Assembly (NCBI GenBank): GCA_002328185.1
Contig: DCWQ01000029.1
Span: 69,951 to 133,950, forward strand
Length of the DNA: 64,000 nt
Origin: Dehalococcoidia bacterium UBA2158
Lineage (GTDB): Bacteria; Chloroflexota; Dehalococcoidia; Lucifugimonadales; UBA3495
Reading direction: 5' to 3'
A program made the position numbers and the translations under genes. Shown piece after piece: positions 8,680 through 38,921 of the stretch. Within the stretch, counting starts at the first letter, position 1, and each line of letters begins with the position of its first letter. The notes under the pieces are model-generated. The model was not told the origin of the DNA. It saw only the letters and a program-made list of their open reading frames with translations, and ran no database searches.

Positions 8680-10296
8680 CTACTCTAAGAAGTCTTTAAG
8701 CTTCCGAGACCGAGACGGGTGGCGTAATTTCCGTAATGCCTTCGCTTCAATCTGACGGATTCTTTCACGGGTCACACCGAACTCACGCCCGACCTCTTCC
8801 AAGGTTCGGCTTCGTCCGTCTTCAAGCCCGAACCGGAGTTCGAGCACCCGTGCCTCGCGCTCGGTCAACGTGTGCAGCACCTCGCCAACCTGCTCCTTAA
8901 GCAGCTGGAAGGATGCAGCATCCGCCGGCGCCAGCGCGTTGCGGTCTTCGATGAAGTCTCCCAGATGGGAGTCCTCTTCCTCGCCGATAGGCGTCTCCAG
9001 TGAGACGGGCTCCTGGGAAATCTTGAGGATTTCCTCAACCTTCTCGGGTCCGATATCCATGGCCAGTCCAATCTCTTCAGGGGTGGGCTCACGGCCGTAT
9101 TCCTGTAGCAACCGGCGGTGTTGACGCATCAGTTTGTTGATGGTCTCAACCATGTGCACAGGGATCCGGATAGTTCGCGCCTGGTCGGCGATGGCCCGGG
9201 TGATGGCCTGTCTAATCCACCAGGTGGCGTAGGTGCTGAACTTGTAACCCTTGCGGTAGTCGAACTTCTCGACCGCACGGATCAGGCCAATGTTGCCTTC
9301 TTGAATCATGTCCAACAGGGCCATACCGCGTCCGATGTATTTCTTGGCAACGCTGACTACCAACCTCAGGTTGGCCTCGGTCAGGCGGGCCTGGGCGCGT
9401 TCAGCCTCGGCATCGATACGACGGAAGTAAGCGCGGAACAGCGGGTCAAGCTCTTGCAGGTCAGTGAAACTGTTCAACTCCGCCAGTTTGGCGTCCAACT
9501 GCTCAAGAGTTGAGTCTTGCAGGACATCGATAGCATCGGGCGGGACCAGCCAGGAACTCAAAGACAAGCCGATCACCTGTTGGTAGACGTCGTCCTGATA
9601 ATCGTTCAGGTCTTCAGCCATGGCCGCGAGCAGGTCAACGGAGACCTGGGCGTCGATGGCGTCCCTGAGTTTCTTGTGGTCCGTTATCTGGGAGACGGTC
9701 AGATTGCTGGGCAAGCCCAGTTGCTCGGATAGCGATTTGACCAAGGGCTCGGCGTTGACCATCCGCTTGAGCAGACCCGCAGCGATCTCCCACGGGCGTG
9801 CCGGGCGACCGTCCAGTCCCTCTAATTCCTCCCGAAGACCTTCAAGATGCTTGCCGCCCTCGATCTTACGGGCCAACGAGCGCTCGTCAGCGGAGGTCAG
9901 CAGGCGGACACGGCCGATTTCGCGCAGATACATGCGTACCGGGTCGTCCAAGACTTCCACAGACTCGGTCTCGGGCTCCCACTCGGGCTCTTCATCGTCG
10001 TCAGAGGAGTCGGTGGGGGAGGGAAGAGAGCTTCCTTCAGTGGCGGTGGCCGTCTCGTTGGCGTCGCCGTCTTTCTCAGCCGTTGCCGTGCCATCCCAAG
10101 CCGCGTCACCGTTGTTGTCGGTGATCGTCGCCGGCCGGGCTCCGGTCATGCCTTCGCCATCGGCACCTTCATCATCACGTCCCGCGTCCACGTTTCGGAG
10201 GATATCCAAAACGGGATTGGGAGAATCCGAATCATCTTGCCGGGATTCTAGAAAATCCTCTGGGGTCAGTTCGTTGGAGCTGTCTCTTCTGGCCAT
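8680..10296 (-). CDS. rpoD: RNA polymerase primary sigma factor (sigma-70 family) with a long acidic N-terminal extension
   Basis: 538 aa. Motifs seen: [11 protein letters not shown] (region 1.2), [50 protein letters not shown] (region 2), and [28 protein letters not shown] (region 4.2). Confidence 0.97.
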
Positions 10297-10305
10297 TAAG
10301 CCTCC

Positions 10306-12141
10306 TCAACCGGAGATTTCCTGGGCTTGGCCTCTCCGGAGGCCTTCATTTATCTTGATCTGTTTGTTCAACCGTAATATATCTTCGTGCTCGCCTTCCT
10401 CAAGGTCAGGAGGTGACTCGGCGAAGCGTATCACTTCTTCAGATTTTAGGTTTTTTAGGTTGCGCTCTTCCAGGCGGGAGGCCACTTCCAAGAAAGACGC
10501 CTCGCGTCCGTTAACGTCCAATGGTATCAGCGGCTTGTCCGTTAAAGAGCCAAGTTGTGCGGTGACTTCGTCGTCACCATCCCGTTTAACAGCCGCCAAT
10601 GTTTCATCTTTATCCAATCCGGAGCCGGCGTCCAGCCATCTGCTGAACAGTTCCCGGTTTTCATGCCGTTGAAAGTACTCTGGGAGCAGCCCGGCGGCCA
10701 GGTCCCTCAACTCCGGATAGTTCAAAAGTAACTGCAGGCAGTGTTCCTCCACCGGGTCGTGATCCAACTTGGCAAAGGGCGACGCTGCCGTAGCCGCGGG
10801 ACGCGGCTGTTCCTGCCTCCGGGTGCGCCGGGCCACGGATGGGCGGCTCAGGGCAGCCTTCACTGTGTCGATGGGTACACTCAGATTATTCGCCAACAAT
10901 TCAACGGCGTTGGCCTGCTGTATCCCGCCTTCAAGAAGGTGGATGAACGGAGCGGCTTCAGCAACACACCTGGCCTTGCCCTCAGGTGAATCTATATCTC
11001 CCTGACTTGTTATCGCATTGATCCGGAACGTTATCGCCGGGATCGCCGATTCCACCAGCTTCATCCAGTCAGAGGGCGAACGATGGATGACCTCGTCCGG
11101 GTCATGCCCCGGCGGCATGACAATTATTCTGGGGTCGGCGTCGATTGTTTGCGTCGAGCCGTCGGGCCCCCGATGGCTGATCTCTTTGGTCCGGAAGTTT
11201 TCCAGTACCACGTCCAAGCTACGCAATGTAGCGTTCTGTCCGGCGGCGTCTTGGTCCAACGCCATGGTCATCTTGCCGGTCAGACGTCTGATCTCATCCA
11301 CTTGGAACTCGGTCAGCGCGGTCCCCATCTGGGCAACCACGTTCTTGAACCCGGCCTGGTGGGCCGCGATGGCGTCCATGTAGCCTTCTACTATTACAGC
11401 GCCCTCTCTTCTAACGTCGGTGCGGGCCCGGTCCATTGCATATAGGATCCGGCTCTTGTCGAACAATGCCCCTTGGGGCGAGTTCAGGTACTTCGGCTCC
11501 GAACCGTCCAGAGATCTGGCGCCAAACCCCACCAGATTTCCGTGGGCGTCACGGATGGGGAACATCAACCGGCCTCGGAACAAATCGTGGTTTACGCCAT
11601 CATCTCCGGCGCGCACCACCCCGGCGCTTGCCAGTTCTTCCTGCGAGTAACCCTCTCGAATCAGATGGTTCTTGAGCGATTCTCCGTCTGATGGGCTAAG
11701 TCCTATTCCAAAGGCCTCGACCGCCTGTTTGTTCAGTCCCCGTTTCTCCAGGTACTCCCTGGCGGACGCACCTTGAACCGACGCCAGCGTTCGCTGGAAA
11801 AAGGCTCGGGTGTCTTCATTTATCTTGTGGGCAGCTTCGTTTTGGGAGCTCTGTCCCCGCTGGGGCAGCGTAACTCCAGCCTGCTGGGCCATCTGACGCA
11901 GGGCTTCGCCGAACTCCAGATTCTCCGAGCGCATCACGAAGGATAGAACATCACCGCCGATGGCACAGGAGCCGAAGCAACGCCAGGACTGCCGGTCGGG
12001 AAACACGTGGAAAGACGGCGTCCTTTCCTGGTGGAACGGGCAGTTGGCTTTGAAGCTGCGGCCGGAGCGTTGCAGAGGCACTCGCTGCGAGATCACCTCG
12101 ACGATATCCAATCGGCTTTTGACGTCGTCAACGACGGTCAT
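10306..12141 (-). CDS. dnaG: DNA primase
   Basis: 611 aa. Zinc finger CPFHQERTPSFHV..CFGC and Toprim segment VIVEGYMD. It ends 9 nt before the rpoD start, the classic dnaG-rpoD arrangement. Confidence 0.95.
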   Translation of the reverse strand: MTVVDDVKSRLDIVEVISQRVPLQRSGRSFKANCPFHQERTPSFHVFPDRQSWRCFGSCAIGGDVLSFVMRSENLEFGEALRQMAQQAGVTLPQRGQSSQNEAAHKINEDTRAFFQRTLASVQGASAREYLEKRGLNKQAVEAFGIGLSPSDGESLKNHLIREGYSQEELASAGVVRAGDDGVNHDLFRGRLMFPIRDAHGNLVGFGARSLDGSEPKYLNSPQGALFDKSRILYAMDRARTDVRREGAVIVEGYMDAIAAHQAGFKNVVAQMGTALTEFQVDEIRRLTGKMTMALDQDAAGQNATLRSLDVVLENFRTKEISHRGPDGSTQTIDADPRIIVMPPGHDPDEVIHRSPSDWMKLVESAIPAITFRINAITSQGDIDSPEGKARCVAEAAPFIHLLEGGIQQANAVELLANNLSVPIDTVKAALSRPSVARRTRRQEQPRPAATAASPFAKLDHDPVEEHCLQLLLNYPELRDLAAGLLPEYFQRHENRELFSRWLDAGSGLDKDETLAAVKRDGDDEVTAQLGSLTDKPLIPLDVNGREASFLEVASRLEERNLKNLKSEEVIRFAESPPDLEEGEHEDILRLNKQIKINEGLRRGQAQEISG

Positions 12142-27885: not shown

Positions 27886-30180
27886 TTACGGCCCCTTGGA
27901 TTCCAGAGCTTCCAATACCACGTCCGGAGTAAGGGGTAAACTGTTCATCTTTACGCCGATGGCATTGGAGACCGCGATGGACAGCGCCGACAGCGGAGGA
28001 ATGATCGGCGCCTCACCTACGCCCCTGACTCCAAACGGATGTCTGGGGTTGGGGACCTCGATCAACACCGTGTCAATCATCGGGACGTCGAGGGTCGTCG
28101 GCATGCGGTAGTCCAGGAAACTGGAGTTCAACATGGCGCCGTTCTCGTCGTAGACGTATCCCTCATTCAACGCCCAGCCGATACCCTGCACGGTGCCGCC
28201 CTGGATCTGGCCCTCAACGTAAGCGGGATGGATGGCGGTGCCCACGTCCAAGAAGGCCGTGTAGCGCAGCACATCCACCTTGCCGGTCTCGGGGTCGACT
28301 TCCACATCTACCAGGTTGCCGGCGATGATGGGGCCAATTCCGGGAGAGACCGTAGACATGGAACAGGATACGGGGCCGCCGGTACGCATCAGCTGTCCTG
28401 CAAGGTCTTTGAAGCTGATCTTGTCCTCGGTGCTGGCGCACATGAATTGACCGCCTTCAAAAGTGATTTGATCCTCATCCACTTCGAAGACGATAGCTGC
28501 CCGTTTAGTCATCAACCGCTTGATCTCCTCTGCGGCCTGGACCGCGGCATAGCCTGTGTCAAATGTCGTGCGGCTGCCTCCGGTATTCGCGGTGTAGCCA
28601 ACGCCGTCGGTATCGGCCACCGCAGGCGAGACATCGTCGGCACTGATACCCAGTACTTCGGCGGCCTGCATGGCGATGGACGTACGGGTACCACCGATGT
28701 CCACCGAGCCAGAGATCAGGTTGATGGTGCCGTTGTTGTTGACCGCGATGGTCACGGACGAAGCCTGACCGCCCTGCCAGCGGTAGCCCACGGACGCACC
28801 TCGGCCTTGGTTGGGGCCGACTAGTGGTGTCTGGTAGTGGGGATGGTCCCGCATGGCCTCTTCAAGCTCTTTGACCCCGAATACGGGATGGGGCACGCCG
28901 TTGGGCTGCCGGTCGCCCGCTTTGACGGCGTTCATCAGCCGGAATTCCATCGGGTCGATACCTAGTTTCTCGGCCAGTTCGTCGATGACCGGTTCCACAG
29001 AAAAAGAGCCCTGGGGCTGGCCAGGGGCCCGGTAGGCCTGGACCTTTTGGCGGTTGGTGACCACGTCATAGCCGTCGACCAACAGGTTCTCGATGTTGTA
29101 GGGTCCGGTGGCGCACAGTGTCGCGCCGCCCACGGGAGAACCGGGGAAGGCCCCGGCGTCGAAGGCGATGCATAGCTGAGCGGCCGTGACCTTCCCGGCT
29201 TTGGTGGCGCCGATTTTAGTCTTCATATGAGATGCCGAAGCCGGGCCGGTTCCCTCGAAGACGTCCTTCCGGCTCATGATTACCTTCACCGGACGGCCGC
29301 TCTTCTTGGACAGCATGGCGGCTACGGGCTCCAGGTAGGTAGTGGCCTTGGCGCCGAACCCGCCGCCGATCTCCGTGGGAATCACCCTGATGCGGGACTC
29401 GGGGATGTCCAAGATGGCGGCGCACGATGAACGGATGGCGAATGCGCCCTGAGTGCAGGTCCAGATGGTGAGACGCCCGTCTCCAGCCCAGGTGGCCGTG
29501 GATGCATGGGGCTCGATGTATCCTTGGTGAACCGTCTGGGTTGTGAACTCGCGCTCCACAATAACGTCGGCTTCGTTGAAACCTTTTTCGATGTCGCCAA
29601 GCTTGTGCTGGATGTGGCTGGCGATGTTGCCTTTCTCGCCGGTGTCTTCACCTCTGGCGAACCGCTCTATCTTGAAGTAGGTGGTCAGGTCGTCATAGAG
29701 AACTGGCGCGTCAGGTTTCATCGCCTCTTGGACACTGAGTACGGGCTTCAGGACCTCGTAATTGACCTCGATCAGGCCCAGAGCTTCCTCGGCTATGTGG
29801 GGACTGGTTGCTGAAACGGCGGCCACGGCGTGACCTTTGTAGCGAGCCCTATCGGCGGCCATGATGTGTTCCGCCAAAAGACGGGATCCGCCCTCGGCTA
29901 GGTCGATGGTCACGTTTCGAATGATGGGAAAGTCTTTCGATGTGATCACCGCGGTGACACCCGGCAGCGCCTCTGCCTTGCTGGTGTCGATTCCTTTGAT
30001 ATTGGCGTGGGCGTAGGGGCTGCGCAGAACCTTGCCGTGCAGCATGCCTGATAGCTGCGTGTCGGCGCCGAACTTGGCCGCGCCGATGACTTTGTCCACA
30101 CCGTCGTGGCGAATGGGCCGTGTGCCGACGACGTTATATTTCTGGGCTTCCGGGGACTGCTGGTCTTTGGCAGAAGTCAA
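27886..30180 (-). CDS. xanthine dehydrogenase / aldehyde oxidase family molybdopterin-binding subunit (CoxL-like)
   Basis: 764 aa: VGTRPIRHDGVDKVIGAAKFGAD...LHGKVLRSPYAHA..., GGGFG, and a C-terminal VRGVGE segment. No 2Fe-2S or FAD subunit genes lie nearby. Confidence 0.9.
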   Translation of the reverse strand: MTSAKDQQSPEAQKYNVVGTRPIRHDGVDKVIGAAKFGADTQLSGMLHGKVLRSPYAHANIKGIDTSKAEALPGVTAVITSKDFPIIRNVTIDLAEGGSRLLAEHIMAADRARYKGHAVAAVSATSPHIAEEALGLIEVNYEVLKPVLSVQEAMKPDAPVLYDDLTTYFKIERFARGEDTGEKGNIASHIQHKLGDIEKGFNEADVIVEREFTTQTVHQGYIEPHASTATWAGDGRLTIWTCTQGAFAIRSSCAAILDIPESRIRVIPTEIGGGFGAKATTYLEPVAAMLSKKSGRPVKVIMSRKDVFEGTGPASASHMKTKIGATKAGKVTAAQLCIAFDAGAFPGSPVGGATLCATGPYNIENLLVDGYDVVTNRQKVQAYRAPGQPQGSFSVEPVIDELAEKLGIDPMEFRLMNAVKAGDRQPNGVPHPVFGVKELEEAMRDHPHYQTPLVGPNQGRGASVGYRWQGGQASSVTIAVNNNGTINLISGSVDIGGTRTSIAMQAAEVLGISADDVSPAVADTDGVGYTANTGGSRTTFDTGYAAVQAAEEIKRLMTKRAAIVFEVDEDQITFEGGQFMCASTEDKISFKDLAGQLMRTGGPVSCSMSTVSPGIGPIIAGNLVDVEVDPETGKVDVLRYTAFLDVGTAIHPAYVEGQIQGGTVQGIGWALNEGYVYDENGAMLNSSFLDYRMPTTLDVPMIDTVLIEVPNPRHPFGVRGVGEAPIIPPLSALSIAVSNAIGVKMNSLPLTPDVVLEALESKGP

Positions 30181-30321
30181 TTTGAATCTCCCGATCTCGT
30201 ATTACTAGGTTGTCCGCGATGCCGTGGCTGGTTGGCTTTGCGTCCCACTATATCCCTGCGAACCTAGATGTCAATTGTCGGTAGTCGTGGGCGTGGTCAT
30301 CTTCACCATGAAGGGCCACCC

Positions 30322-31278
30322 TCACACCTGCGGCATGATCTCAGTTCCGCATAGTTCCAGTTGGCCGGCCTGGTCGGGCCCCCCGAAGCGGACCACGATG
30401 GTTTCCACACCGGCGGCCACAAAGCCTTTCAGCCAGGCCACGGTGTCTTGAACGTTTCCGGTGAATACGCTTTGCGTGCGAGACATGGTCTCGAAGGGCA
30501 TATTATAGTAGCCTTCGATGAATTCCCGCATTTCTTTGTCCGCCTGGGCTTTGTCCTCGTTGATGTTCAGGGTGGTGTATAGGGCCTTGTGCAGTCGGCC
30601 AGCGTCGTCGCCCGACTTTTTGGCCAGGGCTTCAATCTGCTGCCAACCTTCTGTGAACTTTTCAGGAGAAGTGGAGTTAGGGAACCAACCGTCGCCCATC
30701 TTGAGCATCCGGCACTGAGGTTTCTCGGCGCTGGCCGCCATCCACAGCGGAATGCCTCCCTTCTGCACGGACTTCAAGCCCAGGCTGATGCCATCCAACT
30801 TGAAGTGGCGGCCGTCGAACGTCACCTCGGACTCGGTCCAAAGTTTTCGCATCACGGTCACGCACTCTTCAAAAATGCTCACCCGGTGCCGGAAGGAGAC
30901 ACCGCAAGCGTTGAATTCTTTCTCCACCGCCGGCGTCTTGCTGGCGATGCCCACCCCAAGAATTACCCGGCCCTGGGACATGATGTCCAAGTTAGCGACT
31001 TCGTTGGCCAGGACCACCGGATTACGCAAAGCAGGCAGGAACACGGCCGTGCCCAGCTTGACCCGCTTGGTGCGCCCGGCGATGGCTGCCAGGGTACCTA
31101 GGGCCTCCAACCGAGGCCGGGCCAGTACACTGTCGCCGCACCAGACCGAGTCGAACCCAGACCCCTCGGCTGTTTCCGCCAGGTGGAACATCGACGCAAA
31201 GTCGGGGTCTCCGGGGGCCATGACCACCTCCCGGGTGGGGAGTAGGTAGCCGAAAGAAGTCTGTCCATTCGCCATCAT
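30322..31278 (-). CDS. LLM-class (F420-dependent type) oxidoreductase
   Basis: Track ORF 30322..31497. Start preferred at the ATGATG at 31278 (GAGG 5 nt upstream), giving a typical 318-aa protein: MMANGQTSFGYLLPTRE...GFDSVWCGDS...RVKLGTAV. Confidence 0.8.
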   Translation of the reverse strand: MMANGQTSFGYLLPTREVVMAPGDPDFASMFHLAETAEGSGFDSVWCGDSVLARPRLEALGTLAAIAGRTKRVKLGTAVFLPALRNPVVLANEVANLDIMSQGRVILGVGIASKTPAVEKEFNACGVSFRHRVSIFEECVTVMRKLWTESEVTFDGRHFKLDGISLGLKSVQKGGIPLWMAASAEKPQCRMLKMGDGWFPNSTSPEKFTEGWQQIEALAKKSGDDAGRLHKALYTTLNINEDKAQADKEMREFIEGYYNMPFETMSRTQSVFTGNVQDTVAWLKGFVAAGVETIVVRFGGPDQAGQLELCGTEIMPQV

Positions 31279-31912
31279 TGGGCCTCGCTTATCGGTGTGA
31301 TGAGTAACGCGATAAGGGTGTTCCAACGAACTCATAGTCGGGACACTCCTGTTAGGCCTTAGATTATAGCTTGCCGGTAAAGATGGCGCGGCAAACACTT
31401 CGTTCTTGCGGCGCACTCCCATCCGGTAAGCGTCGATGGACAGCAAAGCTAGAACTACCACCAGACCCACGCTGCCCAGGAGAATGTAGACTGCCAAATC
31501 ACGGCTCAGGTTCGAAGATTCTTCTTCCCGGCAAAGTACGTCCGAGCAGGCGTTTGGCTCGTCGGAGTCCGTTCCCGGGGAACGGTGTCTCCGGTGCGGC
31601 CTTCCCGGGGCTATTTGAATACGAGATCGCCCTGGTCCTCCACACCGGCGACAAGTAGATCGGAGTCCCCGGAGAATACGCGGACGGCCATTGTTGTCCG
31701 TTGGCGTCCGGCCTGAACGGATGTGAATACCTGATCAATGTCGCCGTCACACCAACAGTCCAATTACAATCTGTGATGACCAAGTTCAGGCCGCCTGACG
31801 TGAGGATAGGCTACTAGATCAGCCTCGAACCGGCACGCTAAAGAACCGATGCTCCAAAGGTAGTAAACTGACAAACCCTTGGTATGTATTTCAGAGTCGC
31901 GGAGGGCCAATA

Positions 31913-32266
31913 ATGCCTAAAGAAGAGCGAGAATTTTTCCACCATGATTCAATACCCTGGACGCCCGTGGCCGACGGCTCAGGCGCCGTGGGCGATGGGA
32001 TGACGGAGAAGATACTGAATTTCGACCCTGAAGCCGGGGTATCAACCAGGATGCTTCGGTGGGCGGCGGGTGCGGAAACCTTCGACGTGATCACCCATGA
32101 TTTCTGGGAAGAGGTCTATGTGATCGAGGGTGAGTTTAACGACAAGACGATCAACCAGACCTTCAGCAGTGGAATGTCTGCCTGCCGGCCGCCGGGCATG
32201 CCTCATGGGCCTTACTCGTCCGCCAACGGCGCCACGACATTCGAGGTGCGGTACTACCGTAAATAG
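31913..32266 (+). CDS. cupin domain protein (ChrR-like cupin)
   Basis: 117 aa; GGAGGG upstream; ...DFWEEVYVIEGEF...PPGMPHGP. Confidence 0.65.
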   Translation: MPKEEREFFHHDSIPWTPVADGSGAVGDGMTEKILNFDPEAGVSTRMLRWAAGAETFDVITHDFWEEVYVIEGEFNDKTINQTFSSGMSACRPPGMPHGPYSSANGATTFEVRYYRK

Positions 32267-32294
32267 CCGGGCAGCTTACTGAGTAATCGGGGAT

Positions 32295-32671
32295 TCAGCC
32301 ACATCCCCCGGGCAGCTTCATGGTCAAAATCGAACCTTTACCCGGTTCGCTTGCCACCAGCAATGTGCCGCCCATCATCCCGCAGAAGTGGCGGGTGATG
32401 CCAAGTCCGCCGAAACGGCGTTTGGTAGGGGTTTCAGCTTGGGTGAATGCCTCAAAGAGCCGGTCCATCTGTTTATCGGTCATGCCGACGCCCGAGTCGC
32501 CACGGCGAAGTTGATCCACTTTTGGCCTTCCGATTCATCCCGAGTGACTTTCCGTTTGATGGTCCTTTGTCCTGATGACGCTTCTGTTCTTGCTCCTAAA
32601 ATCAGGGACTCTCCCTCAAACACCCGGATCCAGGCTCCGATTGCGCCGACCAGCCGAGCTGCCTCGTCCAC
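32295..32671 (-). pseudogene. histidine kinase C-terminal (HATPase_c) remnant, frameshifted
   Basis: 32295..32519 encodes ..DSGVGMTDKQMDRLFEAFTQ...GGLGITRHFCGMMGGTLLVASEPGKGSILTMKLP (G1/G2 boxes). The preceding segment (32480..32671: ...RKVTRDESEGQKWINFAV) is in another frame. No intact HisKA, sensor domain or start codon was found. Confidence 0.6.
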
Positions 32672-32932
32672 GATCAGTTGCGTACTTAATCTGTGTTGTG
32701 GGCGGGAGCTACTTTACCGGAGAAGTATTGGAGCGCCAACGAGCGGTCACGTTCCTGTTCCAGCTATTCCAGTAGCTACTTCTTGGTTTTACGCTGGTCA
32801 TTCATGCTGTATCCGATACGAAGTTGCCGGAATTGAGGCACGAGTCAATAGGGAAAATGCGGCAGTCACAATTCCGCGACGTTGTAACAAAAAAAGCCCG
32901 GCCATTTTGATCGGGTCCCAAAATTGTTCGGT

Positions 32933-34372
32933 TTAAAAAGTTTTGGCCAGTTTAGCCCGTTCTTCGCGCCGGTCGCGCATCATGATTGGCACGATCGACC
33001 GGGCAAACCGGCCTACCAAGCCTTCCTGGAAATCCTCAACCGATACTTTGAACAGCTCTCTACTTAATCCCGAACTGCGCACAACTTCTTCAGCCACCTG
33101 CGCAGTGGTGCCTGGATTGAGGACCAGCCGGGTATCGATCTCATCGTCTTCCAGTCCATTGGCTATCAGAACCAGCATGTCTGCACTGACGAGCTTTTCG
33201 CGCACTTGGTAGAAGACGTCGCCGGCCATGGTTTCCAAGAAGAACCACTCTTCCAGGGTATCGGAGTCGGGTAGCATCGCCCCGGGTTTTGCGGTGACTG
33301 CTTCGAAATAAAAGGCTTTGATATCGGCGGTGAGGAAACGCAGCAACCGAGGCATCGGATGGGCGAAAATATCCGGGACCGTTATGTCAGCGCCCGCCGA
33401 GAAGTCCACCAATACTTGAAGCATATCGTCGATAGAATCAGGTCCCTTGCCGCTGATACCCACAGTGGTGCGGCCTCTAGAGCGCCGGCCTTCATCGAAC
33501 CATGGCCGCAGCAATTGAACTTCTGTACGCAATTGGACTTTTAACGAATCGGATTCGGTGATTGGTTCCAGAGAGGGGAAAATCACCGGGCAGGACCAGC
33601 CCTCTTCGCCAAGCGCCTCGTCTTCGATGATGTCTGGGTAGTCGAGCAAGGCGGGAGCGGCCCCTTGGTCCACCAGCGCCAAGGTCTGGCGCAACACGTC
33701 TATCTGGACGTCCGGGCGATTGGGCGGACCAAGGGGCCGGCCCAATGGGAATGGGACCCACAACGCCCTGGGTGGCTTTACTGCTTCTGAGACCGGTCTG
33801 ATCAGGCTTATCTGGACCGTCGCGATACCGGCGCCTCTTTCACTGACGGGCCGTTCGATGTATTGAGATAGTACGCCCACGGCGTAGGTGCAGTTGGGTC
33901 AAACAGGTATCAGCAGCACCAGGTTGACCTTGTCTCCAAAAAGAAATCTTGAGACCTCTGTTGCGGCCGGCTCCATACGCTGCGGCGCGGTTGATCCCAT
34001 GAACGAATAATGCCAGTCCGCGACAGACTCTATCTCCTTTGAATCGACCAAAGTCCTCAAGTGGTCGAGGGGAAAACAGACGTTCACGTCTTGCTGGTAG
34101 GCGCTACGGTCGAAGTTGGTGCTGGAGTGAGTCATCGCTAGGTCTTTGTAGTCGACGTCGCCGGGTATGACCCGGTAATCGCCTTCGTGACCGGTGAACG
34201 GCCGGTCATCGGCCCGGTGGATGGCAGCAGTGGTAATGATGGCAACCCTGGCATCGGTCAACTTGGGGGCTTCGACCCAAGGAGTTTGCTCCAAAGGCGG
34301 AACGTATCTTCCGCCTAACCGCTCCAATAGGCTCGCTTGTTCATTTGGATGAATATCTGCCCAACGGACCAT
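32933..34372 (-). CDS. GrdB/PrdB-like (glycine/sarcosine/betaine/D-proline reductase component B family) protein; candidate selenoprotein with Sec at codon 158
   Basis: Track ORFs 33899..34372 and 32933..33880 share one frame and are separated only by TGA (33899..33901) plus 6 sense codons: ...KVNLVLLIPV-TGA-PNCTYAVGVLSQYIERPVSERGAGIATVQISLIRPVSEAVKPPRALWVPFPLGRPLGPP. The N-terminal part reads RVAIITTAAIH...GDYRVIP...VCFPLDHLR. A hairpin lies 12 nt after the TGA. Confidence 0.7.
33872..33886 (-). promoter_or_regulatory. candidate bacterial SECIS core hairpin
   Basis: The mRNA reads UGA-CCCAACUGCACC-UACGCC-GUG-GGCGUA, a 6-bp GC-rich stem with a G/U-containing apical loop starting 12 nt after the UGA. 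Confidence 0.4.
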
Positions 34373-34399
34373 GATTAATATCTCTCGCCTGATTTTCGA

Positions 34400-34831
34400 T
34401 TAATGATCATGCTGAGCAAGCTCGATCAGGACTCCCCGGGCCGCTGAAGGGCTCAGAAACCCGATATCGCCGCCCATCAACCCTTTCCTCGGCACGCGGT
34501 CACGTAGGTCAATGCCGAGAGAATCAAGAGTCTTCAACTTCTCTTCGATCCCCTCTATTTCGAAGCAAACGTGGTGGAGTCCTTCACCTTTTTCCTCGAC
34601 GTGCATAGATATCGAGCTGCCTGGCCCGGACCCTTGAAGAAGCTCCAAGTTGGTGTTGCCTATCGGAACGAAGCACCCGCGAACTCCGATATCTTCTCGG
34701 ACGATTATCGGGCCCGGTATCAGCCCAAAGATACTCCGGTAGAAATCCATACTCGAGCCCAGATCGGCCACTGCGATACCGATATGGTGTACGACGTCAG
34801 TAGGAGCTGGTGGTTTTCCTGGAATAGTCAT
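34400..34831 (-). CDS. VOC family protein (methylmalonyl-CoA epimerase-like)
   Basis: 143 aa: VHHIGIAVADLGSSMDFYRSIFGL...GEGLHHVCFEIEGI...GVLIEL. Confidence 0.75.
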   Translation of the reverse strand: MTIPGKPPAPTDVVHHIGIAVADLGSSMDFYRSIFGLIPGPIIVREDIGVRGCFVPIGNTNLELLQGSGPGSSISMHVEEKGEGLHHVCFEIEGIEEKLKTLDSLGIDLRDRVPRKGLMGGDIGFLSPSAARGVLIELAQHDH

Positions 34832-34867
34832 TCTGAAACCTCTCGTCTAAGGGGCTATTTTTGTAGC

Positions 34868-35742
34868 TCAGAGACGGGCCTTGGCCTTCGGTAGTTCGCC
34901 CCGGAACTCTTGGAATAAACAGTTAACGTTGATGATGATCCTCTCCGGCTCCACCCAGTCGGCGAATTCGCCCAGGCGTATGGCTCGGCTAGTTTCCTCA
35001 ACGCTTGAGCCCCGGTTGAAGTGGAGCTGTGACGCTCGCCTGATCAAGCGGAGATATCTCAAGGTTTTGCTAAACACTTCCTTATCGTCACAGGTCCGTG
35101 CCCCGGCATCAAAGTGGTCACGTCCAGGTGTTTGAAGATACCGTCCGCGACCTTGATCCAATTACTGACATGACCGTCTCGCGCCAACGGAGTTAAGTAG
35201 TGGAAAGCGACGTCGCCTGAGAACAACACCTTATCCTGGGGCAAGTAAACCATGGTGTCTCCATAAGTATGGGCCGGACCCGGATGGAGCAATTCGACCA
35301 CCCGGCCGCCTAGGTGGACGTTCATTTTGTCCTGGTAGGTGATGGTTGCGGGATTCAGCTGGGTCTTGGCCCAGTCCTCTCGGTATTGGGGAAATTGTTC
35401 ATTCAGCATATTCACGTCGGCGCCCCGTGCCAGCATGGCTTCACGGCATCCCTGGTGGGAAACCACTTCCGCGGGCAGATAGAACTGGTTGCCGAATGAG
35501 TGGTCAACATGATGGTGAGTGTTGACTACGTATCTGATCGGTTTGTCGGTGACCTTGCGAATCTCTTCCAAGTACGGATCGACCATGCTGGCGACCATCA
35601 TGGCGTCGATCACCATCACACCGTCGTCTCCGACTATGAACCCGGAATTGCATATATCCCATCCGACGCCGCTATGAACGTAGGCGAAGACATTCTCCGC
35701 AATTTCCTGCAATCCAGACTTCCAAGATGGTATCGGCATCAA
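34868..35742 (-). pseudogene. MBL-fold metallo-hydrolase, split by a frameshift near 35085..35100
   Basis: 35059..35742 encodes the MBL core (VVNTHHHVDHSFGN ... MPGHGPV). The expected C-terminal helical part (..DDKEVFSKTLRYLRLIRR...GEFADWVEPERIIINV) continues in another frame as ORF 34868..35161. This could be either a sequencing error or a genuine pseudogene. Confidence 0.65.
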
Positions 35743-35798
35743 GCACCTCCGATATGACTCACCAATGTTTGCGGAGCAACGGGCAAGGTTTCAACAAG

Positions 35799-36668
35799 CT
35801 ATAGCGCTGTCAGCCCGTCGTAGGTTTCCGGACGCCGGTCACGGAAGAACTGCCACGTGGACCGAACTTCGCTGATCTCTTCCAGTTCCAGGTCCGCCAC
35901 GATCACTTCGTCTTGGTCACGGCTGCCCTGAACGAGTATCTGGCCCTTCGGGTTGCAGAAATAGCTCTTCCCGAAGAACTCCCCAATGTCCCAAGGTTGT
36001 TCGTGTCCGACCCGGTTGATAGCGCCTACAAAATACCCATTGGCAACGGCGTGGGCCGGTTGCTCCAATTCCCAGAGATATTCGGATAATCCCGCGACGG
36101 TCGCGGACGGATTGAAAACGATCTCAGCACCGTTGAGGCCCAAGGCCCTGGCGCCTTCAGGAAAGTGGCGGTCGTAACAGATGTACACCCCTATGGTTCC
36201 GACACTGGTAGCAAATACCGGATATCCGCTGTTGCCGGGCTTGAAGTAAAATTTCTCCCAGAACCCAGGGGCGAGGTGAGGAATGTGGGTCTTGCGGTAC
36301 TTGCCCAAGTAGGAGCCGTCAGCATTCAGCACGGCTGCAGTGTTATAGAAAACGCCAGTCATCGCTTCTTCGTAGACCGGGACGATCAGCGCCATGTTGT
36401 GCAATTTCGCCAGGCCCTGCATCAGGCGGACCGTCGGGCCGTCGGGCACGCGTTCCACCATCGAGTACCAACGAGGGTCTTGTTCAGCACAGAAATATGG
36501 ACCGTAAAATAGTTCTTGCAAACAGAGAACTTGTACGCCCTCGGCGGCAGCCTGCTCGATCAGCGAGACATGTTTGTCGATCATGAATTGTTTCAGTTGG
36601 TCGATCGCATGTGGCGCATCGGCGCCGACACTGGCTTGAATCAACCCTGCTCGGACAATTTTTGGCAT
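35799..36668 (-). CDS. carbon-nitrogen hydrolase (nitrilase superfamily; beta-ureidopropionase / N-carbamoyl-amide hydrolase-like)
   Basis: 289 aa: RAGLIQAS..., LCLQELF (Glu), YRKTHIP (Lys), ICYDRHFPE (Cys). Confidence 0.85.
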   Translation of the reverse strand: MPKIVRAGLIQASVGADAPHAIDQLKQFMIDKHVSLIEQAAAEGVQVLCLQELFYGPYFCAEQDPRWYSMVERVPDGPTVRLMQGLAKLHNMALIVPVYEEAMTGVFYNTAAVLNADGSYLGKYRKTHIPHLAPGFWEKFYFKPGNSGYPVFATSVGTIGVYICYDRHFPEGARALGLNGAEIVFNPSATVAGLSEYLWELEQPAHAVANGYFVGAINRVGHEQPWDIGEFFGKSYFCNPKGQILVQGSRDQDEVIVADLELEEISEVRSTWQFFRDRRPETYDGLTAL

Positions 36669-36784
36669 GCTACCTCTGTGCGAGTTAGGTTACTAGGCCG
36701 TGTTTATGGGCCAGACTGTGCGGATTTCTGGCCCATATAACAATACCGTATGCCAAATACCGAAGTGGCCTAGGTTGAATCCGT

Positions 36785-38359
36785 TTAGGCCGGAGCTACA
36801 AACTCGACGGCGCGCTCCGCCATCATGAGGACCGTAGCATGGCTGCCACCTGACCTGGTGATCTTTGGCTTCACCGACGCATCGACCACCGACAACCCAG
36901 TTACTCCCTTGACTTGGCAGTATTGATCGACAACCGCCATCGGGTCGGAGTCGGGCCCCATCTTGCAGGTCCCGGATACGTGCCTGGCCGTTCCAACAGT
37001 CTGGGCTATGTAAAGGTCCAAAGCGTCGTCATTGCCCAGAATGTCATCTGTCGGGTGGAGCCGGCGATCGCATACATCTTTGTAGGCGCCGGTCTCGAGG
37101 AAATCAGCCGCCTTCCTTATACCTTCCCGCACCCGGCGTTTGTCATTCTGGTCCTGGAGATAGCGATAATTGAAGGTGGGTTGTACAGAGGGATCATCGG
37201 ACGCAAGGTTGACGTATCCCGAGCCGTCGGGTAACCCAAGGGTAATCGAGATTCTTGCCACCCGGTCTGCAGGGACTTCGTCATTCAGGAATTTGGTCCG
37301 CAGACCGGGGACGCGCTCTGGCCGCTCGTCGACCATCGGCGTGGTCCTCATCAACATGTCGTTGACTTCGCTGGACCCGTCGGATGTGTAGTGCAGGCCA
37401 AAGTGGACCCCATCGACGTCGCCAAAGAGGGACAACCCGTCTTTGACCTTGAAGGTAACCTGGGCGCTCAGATGGTTCATCAAGTTCTGTCCGACTCCGG
37501 GAAGGTCCTGAATGACCGGAATACCGAATTGCTCAAGCTGGTCCGCGGGGCCAATCCCCGACAGCATCAGCAGTTGAGGCGATTTGATAGCCCCGGCACT
37601 CAACACAACACGTTCGGCTTCAATGGTGAAGATCTCGCCGCCGCTTTCTACTTCCACGCCAACGGCCCTCTTGTTTTCAATCAACACCTTCCTGGCCAAT
37701 ACCCCTCCCCTCACCGTCAGGTTAAGACGGTGACGCATGGGGTTTAAGTGGGTGATCGCGGCGCTCATCCGCCAGCCGTCCAGGTTGTTCGACGGCCACA
37801 CGCCTACGCCCGCGGGATTTGGGCCGTTGGTATCCTCAACCGCCCCGTAACCCTCATCCAAACAGGCTGCGTGGAACGCCTTTTGTATGTCTGGCGTTGG
37901 TCCGGTCTGGCGACGCCTTACCGGTATCGGACCGTCGGTCCCATGAAAATCGTCCCGGATGTCTAGGTCGTGTTCGGATTTCCTGAAGAACGGCAAGACT
38001 TTGTCATAAGACCATTGGTCGTTGCCCATGGCAGCCCATGAATCGAAATCCTCAGGCAAACCTCTCTGCATAGCCGCGCCATTGATGGACGACCCTCCCC
38101 CAATCACCTTTCCCTGGGCTACGTGTATCTCCCCTTGCTCCTCGGTGGCCGTTCCCTGCAGGGCCCAGTTGTGTTCCGAATCCGGGGATTCGGCATAACC
38201 TGTGGTCGCGTATTTGATCTCGTCGGGAAGGATGTCTGTATTCGGGTAGTCCGTCCCGGCTTCCAGCAATAAGATAGAGGTATTCGCGTTCTCGGCCAAT
38301 CTACCGGCCAACACTGACCCGGCGGCGCCACCTCCGACAATCACAACATCGTATTTCAT
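36785..38359 (-). CDS. GMC family oxidoreductase (choline dehydrogenase-like)
   Basis: 524 aa: MKYDVVIVGGGAAGSVLAGRLAE, GKVIGGGSSINGA, and a C-terminal HATVLMMAERA-type segment. Confidence 0.9.
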   Translation of the reverse strand: MKYDVVIVGGGAAGSVLAGRLAENANTSILLLEAGTDYPNTDILPDEIKYATTGYAESPDSEHNWALQGTATEEQGEIHVAQGKVIGGGSSINGAAMQRGLPEDFDSWAAMGNDQWSYDKVLPFFRKSEHDLDIRDDFHGTDGPIPVRRRQTGPTPDIQKAFHAACLDEGYGAVEDTNGPNPAGVGVWPSNNLDGWRMSAAITHLNPMRHRLNLTVRGGVLARKVLIENKRAVGVEVESGGEIFTIEAERVVLSAGAIKSPQLLMLSGIGPADQLEQFGIPVIQDLPGVGQNLMNHLSAQVTFKVKDGLSLFGDVDGVHFGLHYTSDGSSEVNDMLMRTTPMVDERPERVPGLRTKFLNDEVPADRVARISITLGLPDGSGYVNLASDDPSVQPTFNYRYLQDQNDKRRVREGIRKAADFLETGAYKDVCDRRLHPTDDILGNDDALDLYIAQTVGTARHVSGTCKMGPDSDPMAVVDQYCQVKGVTGLSVVDASVKPKITRSGGSHATVLMMAERAVEFVAPA

Positions 38360-38510
38360 GGGTTCTCCCTGATTTATTTGTCATCTGGATTAGGACCTTC
38401 CAGATACCACTGATACCCAAAATGGGTTTATGTCTCGGTGATACTACACTGAGACCAATTATCGGGCAACAAACGGACAGATAGCGTCAATGTAAAGGTC
38501 AGGCGTTTTA

Positions 38511-38921
38511 CTATTTGGACCCCGGTTCCTTCTCTACGACGTGGAGGTACATGAAAGCGCCGCTCAGAAGAGTGGCGTCTTCGCAGTGGCCGCCGATCAT
38601 TTCACCTGAAGGCCGGGCGGCGGCAATGTGAATGTGCACCCGAAGGGCGCCTTCCGGCAAGGGTTGGATGTACCCTTCCGCACTAACTACCTCCAGGGTT
38701 TCGTTCAACACGTGCCGTTGGAATTCAGGCGAGCCTTCTTCCCAGCTACAAAGGTTTCGCAGCTTCAGTTCACTCAAACTCCCGATGCAGGACGTTACGA
38801 TAGCTTCTCTGATGCCCTCTGCCTGCGCCAGTGATTCGAGGGTGCTGACCAAGGACTCCCCAGCTAGAAATTTTCTGTACAGGATGCCTGAGGCTTTCGT
38901 TTCCCATTCTTGAATTGCCAT
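38511..38921 (-). CDS. PPC (DUF296) domain protein
   Basis: 136 aa: ...SCIGSLSELKLRN...HIHIAAARPSGEMIGGHC..., typical of PPC/DUF296. Confidence 0.6.
   Translation of the reverse strand: MAIQEWETKASGILYRKFLAGESLVSTLESLAQAEGIREAIVTSCIGSLSELKLRNLCSWEEGSPEFQRHVLNETLEVVSAEGYIQPLPEGALRVHIHIAAARPSGEMIGGHCEDATLLSGAFMYLHVVEKEPGSK

Follow-up and report, generated by a model that had tools for sequence, protein, structure and literature searches.

D-proline reductase PrdB (TIGR04483) is a protein of 241 aa whose reference genes lie in prdC-prdA-x-prdB operons, and whose reaction needs the pyruvoyl subunit PrdA. It belongs to a superfamily of selenoprotein B subunits together with GrdB, GrdF and GrdH of the glycine, sarcosine and betaine reductases (PF07355; TIGR01917/TIGR01918; NF040794/5), and UxxCxxC has been given as the motif of GrdB (PMC13188914). 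A gene of this superfamily is analyzed here on the minus strand of a 64,000-nt stretch of contig DCWQ01000029.1 from Dehalococcoidia bacterium UBA2158; this whole stretch is referred to as the window, and all positions are counted within it. The gene, at 32933..34372, is interrupted by an in-frame TGA which almost certainly codes for selenocysteine (Sec). With high probability the locus is a single gene for a selenoprotein of 479 residues, in which UGA158 would be recoded through a downstream hairpin and which is homologous to PrdB and GrdB while being neither of them proper, the apparent split into two open reading frames (ORFs) being an artefact.

Proteins under the name PrdB have been recorded from the ocean since 2005. 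In those parts of the two marine surveys that deal with the family, 'Proline reductase PrdB' (UXXC) comes third in abundance among the selenoprotein families of the Sargasso Sea selenoproteome of 2005, with 42 Sec forms and 1 Cys form (PMC1088965), and the Global Ocean Sampling (GOS) data of 2008 contribute 235 selenoproteins, found in 38 samples, and 110 Cys homologs to 'Proline reductase PrdB, pfam07355, UxxC' (PMC2398784). The same parts handle the family as proline reductase and mention neither a C-terminal domain nor a missing PrdA (PMC1088965, PMC2398784). A genome survey of 2006 also lists 'proline reductase' selenoproteins in Anaeromyxobacter and Geobacter (PMC1794560).

The gene starts with ATG at 34372 and runs through 157 sense codons to TGA at 33901-33899, then through 321 further sense codons to TAA at 32935-32933. 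A preliminary description of the window had pointed out that two listed ORFs, 33899..34372 (157 aa) and 32933..33880 (315 aa), share one frame with TGA 33899-33901 as the sole interruption, and had counted 479 aa with U at position 158 for the joined product; reading of the minus strand bears out the former in every detail and a codon count the latter. The 'start' of the 315-aa ORF is a GTG at 33880, six codons past the TGA. The surrounding sequence reads ...LVLLIPV-TGA-PNCTYAVGVLSQ... (local context LLIPV-TGA-PNC), and the peptide spanning the junction is predicted as ...VNLVLLIPV-U-PNCTYAVGVLSQYIER. TGA is the stop of 10 of the 38 long ORFs in the window, and the genetic code is therefore standard. 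The features of the locus are as follows.

32933..34372, minus strand: very probably a single gene for a PrdB/GrdB-superfamily selenoprotein with a C-terminal extension; 479 sense codons, UGA included, and TAA, delimited from the frame, the span of the TIGR04483 match and the adjacency of both halves in 81 loci.
33899..33901, minus strand: UGA codon 158, almost certainly read as Sec (U of U-P-N-C); TGA in 84 aligned copies and aligned with Sec or Cys of PrdB.
33890..33892, minus strand: TGC for Cys161, putative resolving Cys of the U-x-x-C redox motif; conserved in 84 copies and in bona fide PrdB.
33872..33886, minus strand: SECIS-type hairpin (SECIS, selenocysteine insertion sequence); 5' arm UACGCC at 33886-33881, loop GUG at 33880-33878, 3' arm GGCGUA at 33877-33872.
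33668..34303, minus strand: PrdB/GrdB-like alpha/beta domain, residues 24-235, with the U-x-x-C site and the PPRALWVPFPLGRPLG motif; delimited from TIGR04483, PF07355, tblastn of prdB genes and the structure model of homolog P0119.
32936..33655, minus strand: C-terminal, family-specific domain of ~240 residues, predicted to be mostly helical, with conserved RGRTTVGxSG; absent from PrdB, which ends at about residue 241.

Conservation among relatives provides evidence that the TGA is read. When GTDB was scanned with each species represented by a single genome, 364 relatives were obtained, and the best 80 of these were kept; they contain 83 gene copies, so that with the window 81 loci and 84 copies are compared below. 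Identity to the query is 42-78 % across the 80 loci, and their hosts are marine Chloroflexota/Dehalococcoidia including SAR202, Acidimicrobiia, a few Gammaproteobacteria (K189A, HTCC2089-type) and one Desulfohalobiaceae metagenome-assembled genome. The closest loci are 71-78 % identical, and the source organism is a marine SAR202-type Dehalococcoidia bacterium. TGA forms are also present on closed Dehalococcoidia chromosomes, among them OY761986.2, OZ242281.1 and OZ219805.1. In all 83 related copies the aligned codon is TGA, with conserved coding sequence flanking it on both sides, which exceeds chance by far; three loci contain a tandem second paralog, and each of these copies has the TGA as well. 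The Cys codon three codons past the TGA is invariant (U-x-x-C): in alignment A3, a gapless alignment of 57 columns and the 84 copies with TGA at columns 10-12, T19 and G20 of this codon do not vary in any copy, and C13 and C14 of the Pro codon directly after the TGA are invariant columns. Clustering of the flanking ORFs indicates that the two gene halves are the only ORFs common to all 81 loci, where they are always adjacent and in frame.

The protein sequence on both sides of the TGA is related to PrdB. The NCBIfam PrdB model TIGR04483 matches residues 24-235 at profile positions 12-219 of 238 with an E-value of 2.4e-27, and the match runs across the TGA. In tblastn against plasmids, annotated prdB genes match residues 23-234 unbroken, with ~30 % identity over ~210 residues. 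When reference prdB genes of Terrisporobacter glycolicus pTG1 and Enterococcus gilvus pCR1A are aligned by MAFFT, the window TGA falls on TGA codon 151 of Terrisporobacter prdB, which is Sec in an annotated coding sequence of 241 codons, and on Cys in Enterococcus PrdB (LLTAG-U-GTC, CTGG-C-GTC and LLIPV-U-PNC for Terrisporobacter, Enterococcus and the window, respectively). The Cys three residues past this Sec/Cys column is common to the window protein and bona fide PrdB. The models of GrdH, GrdF and GrdB match residues ~37-215 at positions ~221-401 of ~435, including the Sec region. The PF07355 model gives 24.9 bits on the N-terminal part and 21.3 on the joined protein, where the gathering score is 22. 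This match stops at residue 154, four before Sec, at position 344 of the 347 in the GRDB profile, and the model itself therefore appears to stop just short of the Sec column. Within the PPRALWVPFPLGRPLG motif, W205, V206, F208, G211, G215 and P217 are invariant.

Full-length homologs without TGA carry Cys at the same site. In six such proteins that were aligned (P0112, P0113, P0115, P0117, P0119 and P0120), Cys occupies the TGA column in 6/6, in the contexts PVCPNC, PVCLLC and PTCPHC, with TGC or TGT in the DNA. The Cys/Sec column at codon 158 for which the preliminary description proposed to look is thus present both in these homologs and, as Sec or Cys, in the two reference PrdB proteins. 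Sequence comparison thereby demonstrates the homology of the N-terminal alpha/beta domain to the PrdB/GrdB selenoprotein-B superfamily, and that of U158-P-N-C161 to the catalytic U-x-x-C of D-proline reductase PrdB.

Beyond the core domain the window protein has no counterpart in PrdB. In the C-terminal domain, G300, R301, G305 and S307 of the RGRTTVGxSG motif are invariant. An AlphaFold2 model of the Cys-form homolog P0119, standing in for the window protein (predicted local distance difference test, 78.8; predicted template-modelling score, 0.82), predicts an alpha/beta domain at residues 1-240 followed by an all-helical domain at 264-393. A sequence search of PDB yielded no match at E <= 1, Foldseek of the P0119 model against PDB yielded no meaningful fold relative (best E 4.4e-3, TM <= 0.25), and Pfam on the C-terminal 240 residues yielded only noise at E <= 5.

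These differences bear on the function of the gene. It might encode a genuine PrdB subunit of D-proline reductase, or a B subunit of glycine, sarcosine or betaine reductase, with its partners encoded elsewhere in the genome: PrdB is the best NCBIfam match, the name PrdB is used by JGI and in the relevant parts of the earlier literature (PMC2398784), and the U-x-x-C site is homologous. This is nevertheless very unlikely. The scores of 95.9 bits on TIGR04483 and 38.0 bits on TIGR01918 ('various_sel_PB') do not reach the respective cutoffs of 300 (equivalog) and 65.45, and the protein is far below the cutoffs of all GrdB, GrdF and GrdH models. The extra helical domain brings it to about twice the length of PrdB; compared with GrdB, the N-terminal half of ~220 residues is missing, and so is the second Cys of UxxCxxC, the window protein reading U-P-N-C-T-Y-A (PMC13188914). 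Unlike the operons of real prdB genes, none of the 81 loci has prdA, grdE, grdA, grdC or prdC visible within ~5 kb (clustered ORFs overlapping -7 to +8 kb). The description of the gene as 'GrdB/PrdB-like' in the preliminary description thus stands at the superfamily level, whereas an assignment to PrdB or GrdB proper fails on cutoffs, partners and architecture.

Marine SAR202 and Acidimicrobiia lineages are aerobic heterotrophs and not Stickland fermenters. A proline reductase role is unlikely because the 'PrdB' stands alone, is extended at its C-terminus, has no prdA gene nearby and occurs in such lineages. Because no gene for a pyruvoyl partner of the PrdA/GrdE type is nearby and the helical C-terminal domain is family-specific, the substrate is probably not D-proline. 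As a tentative alternative, which on present indications is possible rather than likely, the ocean 'PrdB' proteins of SAR202, Acidimicrobiia and some Gammaproteobacteria would be no subunits of a proline reductase but self-contained, single-chain Sec-dependent reductases in which the C-terminal domain replaces PrdA/GrdE and the substrate is probably of the amine or osmolyte type. In such a single-chain enzyme, the C-terminal domain of ~240 residues with RGRTTVGxSG may serve in substrate binding or activation.

A small hairpin is predicted in the mRNA just downstream of the UGA. Its stem starts 12 nt past the UGA and comprises 6 bp in the window (-7.4 kcal/mol); in the family the hairpin has 5-7 bp and a G-U-N loop and begins ~12 nt after UGA. 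In alignment A3 the register is fixed, with columns 24-30 pairing with 34-40 and the G-U-N loop at 31-33. Paired cells amount to 85.7 % in this structure; sliding the 3' partner by 1-3 columns lowers them to 38-59 %. Cells changed on both sides number 75 versus 30.9 +/- 3.8 in shuffled alignments, and this count and the covariation score were reached in 0 of 500 shuffles. Pair 25-39, for example, is seen as GC, CG, UG, AU, GU and UA, and RNAalifold independently gives a core helix of columns 25-29 and 35-39. A Gly codon lies in the 3' arm of 61 distinct sequences, and its free third base forms a pair with the partner codon's first base in 61/61 (G with C or U; A with U in 8/8 and U with A in 2/2; p < 5e-5 by permutation). 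As this covariation is at a synonymous site, protein constraint cannot be its cause.

The hairpin has decayed in most Cys forms. In Sec forms 5.9 of 7 pairs are formed on average, with a mean energy of -9.6 kcal/mol. At the six Cys-form loci the hairpin is lost in four (2-3 of 7 pairs, 0 to -3.7 kcal/mol; two of the four, L081 and L090, are identical in sequence there), weak in one and kept in one. The locus that keeps it, L085 (6352-6408; Cys form P0112, TGC), has a hairpin of -10.7 kcal/mol in the SECIS register and the peptide context of the Sec forms L023, L050 and L051. L085/P0112 is probably a recent-looking Sec-to-Cys conversion with a fossil SECIS, because it is the Cys form most similar to the Sec forms. 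In the tandem paralogs, which occur in some Dehalococcoidia genomes, a separate hairpin follows each in-frame TGA (L033, 8733 and 10475; L066, 10478 and 11820; L078, 9085 and 10475). In Terrisporobacter prdB, too, a hairpin of 7 bp lies at a comparable distance from the UGA, so that a SECIS hairpin shortly after UGA is shared with PrdB.

In the SECIS of the fdhF type, a hairpin lies immediately 3' of the UGA, inside the coding sequence, and is bound by SelB. The hairpin at 33886-33872 resembles that of E. coli fdhF in its location in the coding region just 3' of the UGA, in the G-U of its apical loop, in its compensatory changes and in its loss from most Cys forms; it differs in being shorter (5-7 bp in the family, with a loop of 3-5 nt) and in having no obvious bulged U. 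It looks like a working bacterial SECIS. SelB would be recruited by this hairpin through its short stem and G-U-G loop, and would deliver Sec-tRNA(Sec) to UGA158. By analogy, Sec158 would act as nucleophile and redox centre, and might form a selenenyl-sulfide with Cys161 that is re-reduced by a cellular dithiol.

Several points weigh against reading the locus as a selenoprotein gene with a SECIS. One Cys form, L085, retains the hairpin. The window hairpin taken singly is not significantly stabler than shuffled sequences (z = -1.4, 22/200), and folding of its 81-nt context gives z = +0.4; the region of bona fide prdB is likewise not significant as a single sequence (z = -0.35), and single-sequence z-scores thus do not discriminate. 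Since a conserved Val codon begins with the G-U of the loop, the invariance of this dinucleotide is not independent evidence, and the covariation counts are cells among related sequences rather than independent events. Rfam yielded no match, either at the gathering threshold over the window or at E <= 10 over 33780-33960, and holds no usable general bacterial SECIS model. As for the Sec machinery, ARAGORN found no tRNA-Sec in the window and 60 loci, and tblastn with E. coli SelA, SelB and SelD gave no match in the window and all loci (~1.4 Mb of related flanks); both searches cover the surroundings of the gene and are uninformative for whole genomes. Lastly, the catalytic mechanism and redox partner proposed for the family are drawn purely by analogy.

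Some of these points would also suit readthrough of the UGA by a near-cognate tRNA (Trp, Cys or Arg), aided by the hairpin and resulting in a full-length protein that is not a selenoprotein. No gene of the Sec machinery came up in the window and the loci searched, and hairpins after stop codons can promote readthrough in general. Such decoding is, however, extremely unlikely here, as the position is that of the catalytic Sec of annotated PrdB and is Cys in all homologs without TGA. Near-cognate readthrough would be inefficient at a catalytic residue and strongly counter-selected, and TGC and TGT are one base away; yet TGA is kept in all 83 related copies. Moreover, both the position and the loop of the hairpin fit bacterial SECIS elements, and the hairpin decays where TGA is replaced by TGY. 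The host phyla are known users of Sec, selenoproteins having been recorded in Chloroflexi and Actinobacteria (PMC1794560). Insertion of Sec at UGA158 is therefore preferred.

The two halves of the gene appear in public databases as separate proteins. A protein search with the joined sequence yielded ~110 clusters of ~290-320 aa that consist of the post-TGA part alone, together with a handful of full-length proteins of 369-436 aa with PF07355. With the N-terminal 240 residues as the query, at least 2000 matches were obtained, and the top 120 of these were, in 120/120, N-terminal fragments, mostly of 152-157 aa, ending at the TGA. Several fragments bear the name 'selenoprotein B glycine/betaine/sarcosine/D-proline reductase' at NCBI or 'D-proline reductase PrdB' at JGI; being named as reductases yet ending at the TGA, they indicate that public annotation knows the family but cuts it at the Sec codon. 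The GTG at 33878-33880 (minus strand) used by gene callers is a Val codon in the apical loop of the SECIS-type hairpin, and many database entries start at exactly GTG 33880 because this codon serves the callers as a start. That GTG is start-capable in 40 of the 84 copies and is GTC, GTT or GTA in the other 44, and in 35/84 no in-frame start codon exists within 15 codons of the TGA; with no conserved restart codon, a conserved two-gene arrangement is excluded. The ~155-aa and ~315-aa database 'proteins' are gene-caller artefacts of the UGA taken as a stop.

A genuine stop, leaving either two genes (a 157-aa PrdB-N fragment and a 315-aa protein from GTG 33880) or one nonsense-inactivated gene, would explain why gene callers everywhere yield exactly these products and would suit the ordinary use of TGA as a stop in this genome and the GTG six codons downstream, but it has next to no probability and is effectively refuted: the TGA is conserved in several phyla while both flanks stay constrained, on which the pseudogene reading fails, the homologous fold and the profile cross it, the Cys-form homologs are single polypeptides, the six codons between TGA and GTG include an invariant Pro and an invariant Cys, and the supposed start is not maintained.

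Other expectations of the preliminary description can be judged on the same evidence. Its candidate readthrough selenoprotein gains support from the TGA in 83/83 related copies, the Cys/Sec column and the covarying hairpin. The PNCTYA that it regarded as conserved between the TGA and the next start contains the invariant Pro and Cys; independent proteins ending at the TGA or starting at the GTG, which it named as contrary evidence, occur in databases only as gene-caller artefacts, the DNA halves being adjacent and in frame in 81/81 loci; and the SECIS element that it suggested seeking after the UGA has its counterpart in a hairpin which covaries.

The selenoprotein gene lies within a run of oxidoreductase and hydrolase genes on one strand (27886-38359, minus strand). 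Its upstream neighbours on the same strand encode a VOC/glyoxalase-fold protein, a metallo-beta-lactamase-fold protein, a carbon-nitrogen hydrolase and a GMC oxidoreductase, and its downstream neighbours an F420/FMN LLM oxidoreductase and a molybdenum hydroxylase large subunit. Paralog-rich catabolic gene content has been reported for SAR202, and the run is typical of such content. Neighbourhood clustering of the 81 loci gave no conserved partner gene; in the SAR202 clade GMC (8/19 loci), LLM, GFO/IDH/MocA and PNPOx-like oxidoreductases are no more than loosely associated with it, and the positions of the GMC homologs near the selenoprotein gene in those 8 loci vary. The GMC oxidoreductase of the window (36785-38359, minus strand) reaches 393.6 bits against a cutoff of 387.45 on the mycofactocin dehydrogenase model MftG TIGR03970; on choline dehydrogenase PRK02106, whose cutoff is 605, its score is 403 bits. 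Within 32600-38700 nothing matched a sigma-70-type promoter. A scan of the window for other same-frame ORF pairs separated by TGA revealed nothing Sec-like; the longest such pair (8680-12141, minus strand; TGA 10306-10308) consists of dnaG (primase) ending in TGA, followed by rpoD (sigma-70), and was rejected as a recoding event because this is the classic dnaG-rpoD arrangement.

The marine 'PrdB' family of the earlier surveys (Zhang, Fomenko and Gladyshev, 2005; Zhang and Gladyshev, 2008) is abundant in metagenomes of the surface ocean and shares with the window gene the U-x-x-C motif, the relation to pfam07355, the marine spread and the predominance of Sec forms. As motif, Pfam relation, marine abundance and Sec-to-Cys ratio fit, the family of the window gene would be this one or a very close one, likened by description and not by sequence. 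The selenoprotein call is thus right, and it is not new, the family having been catalogued from ocean metagenomes since 2005; novelty is low because the gene adds a new member, found in a SAR202-type genome, to an already catalogued ocean selenoprotein family, and the call mainly confirms existing knowledge. In the literature on PrdB-like and GrdB-like proteins and on selenocysteine in SAR202, no characterization of the extended architecture or its function was found.

Public catalogues still halve the gene, and hundreds of ~155-aa and ~315-aa 'proteins' are parts of one gene. Splitting at the Sec codon distorts protein-family statistics and conceals the active site. The functional question is the more interesting one: one of the most abundant ocean selenoprotein families carries the label 'proline reductase' while it has no partner gene nearby and possesses an uncharacterized extra domain. 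Knowledge of the substrate would account for a sizeable share of the selenium demand of marine microbes.

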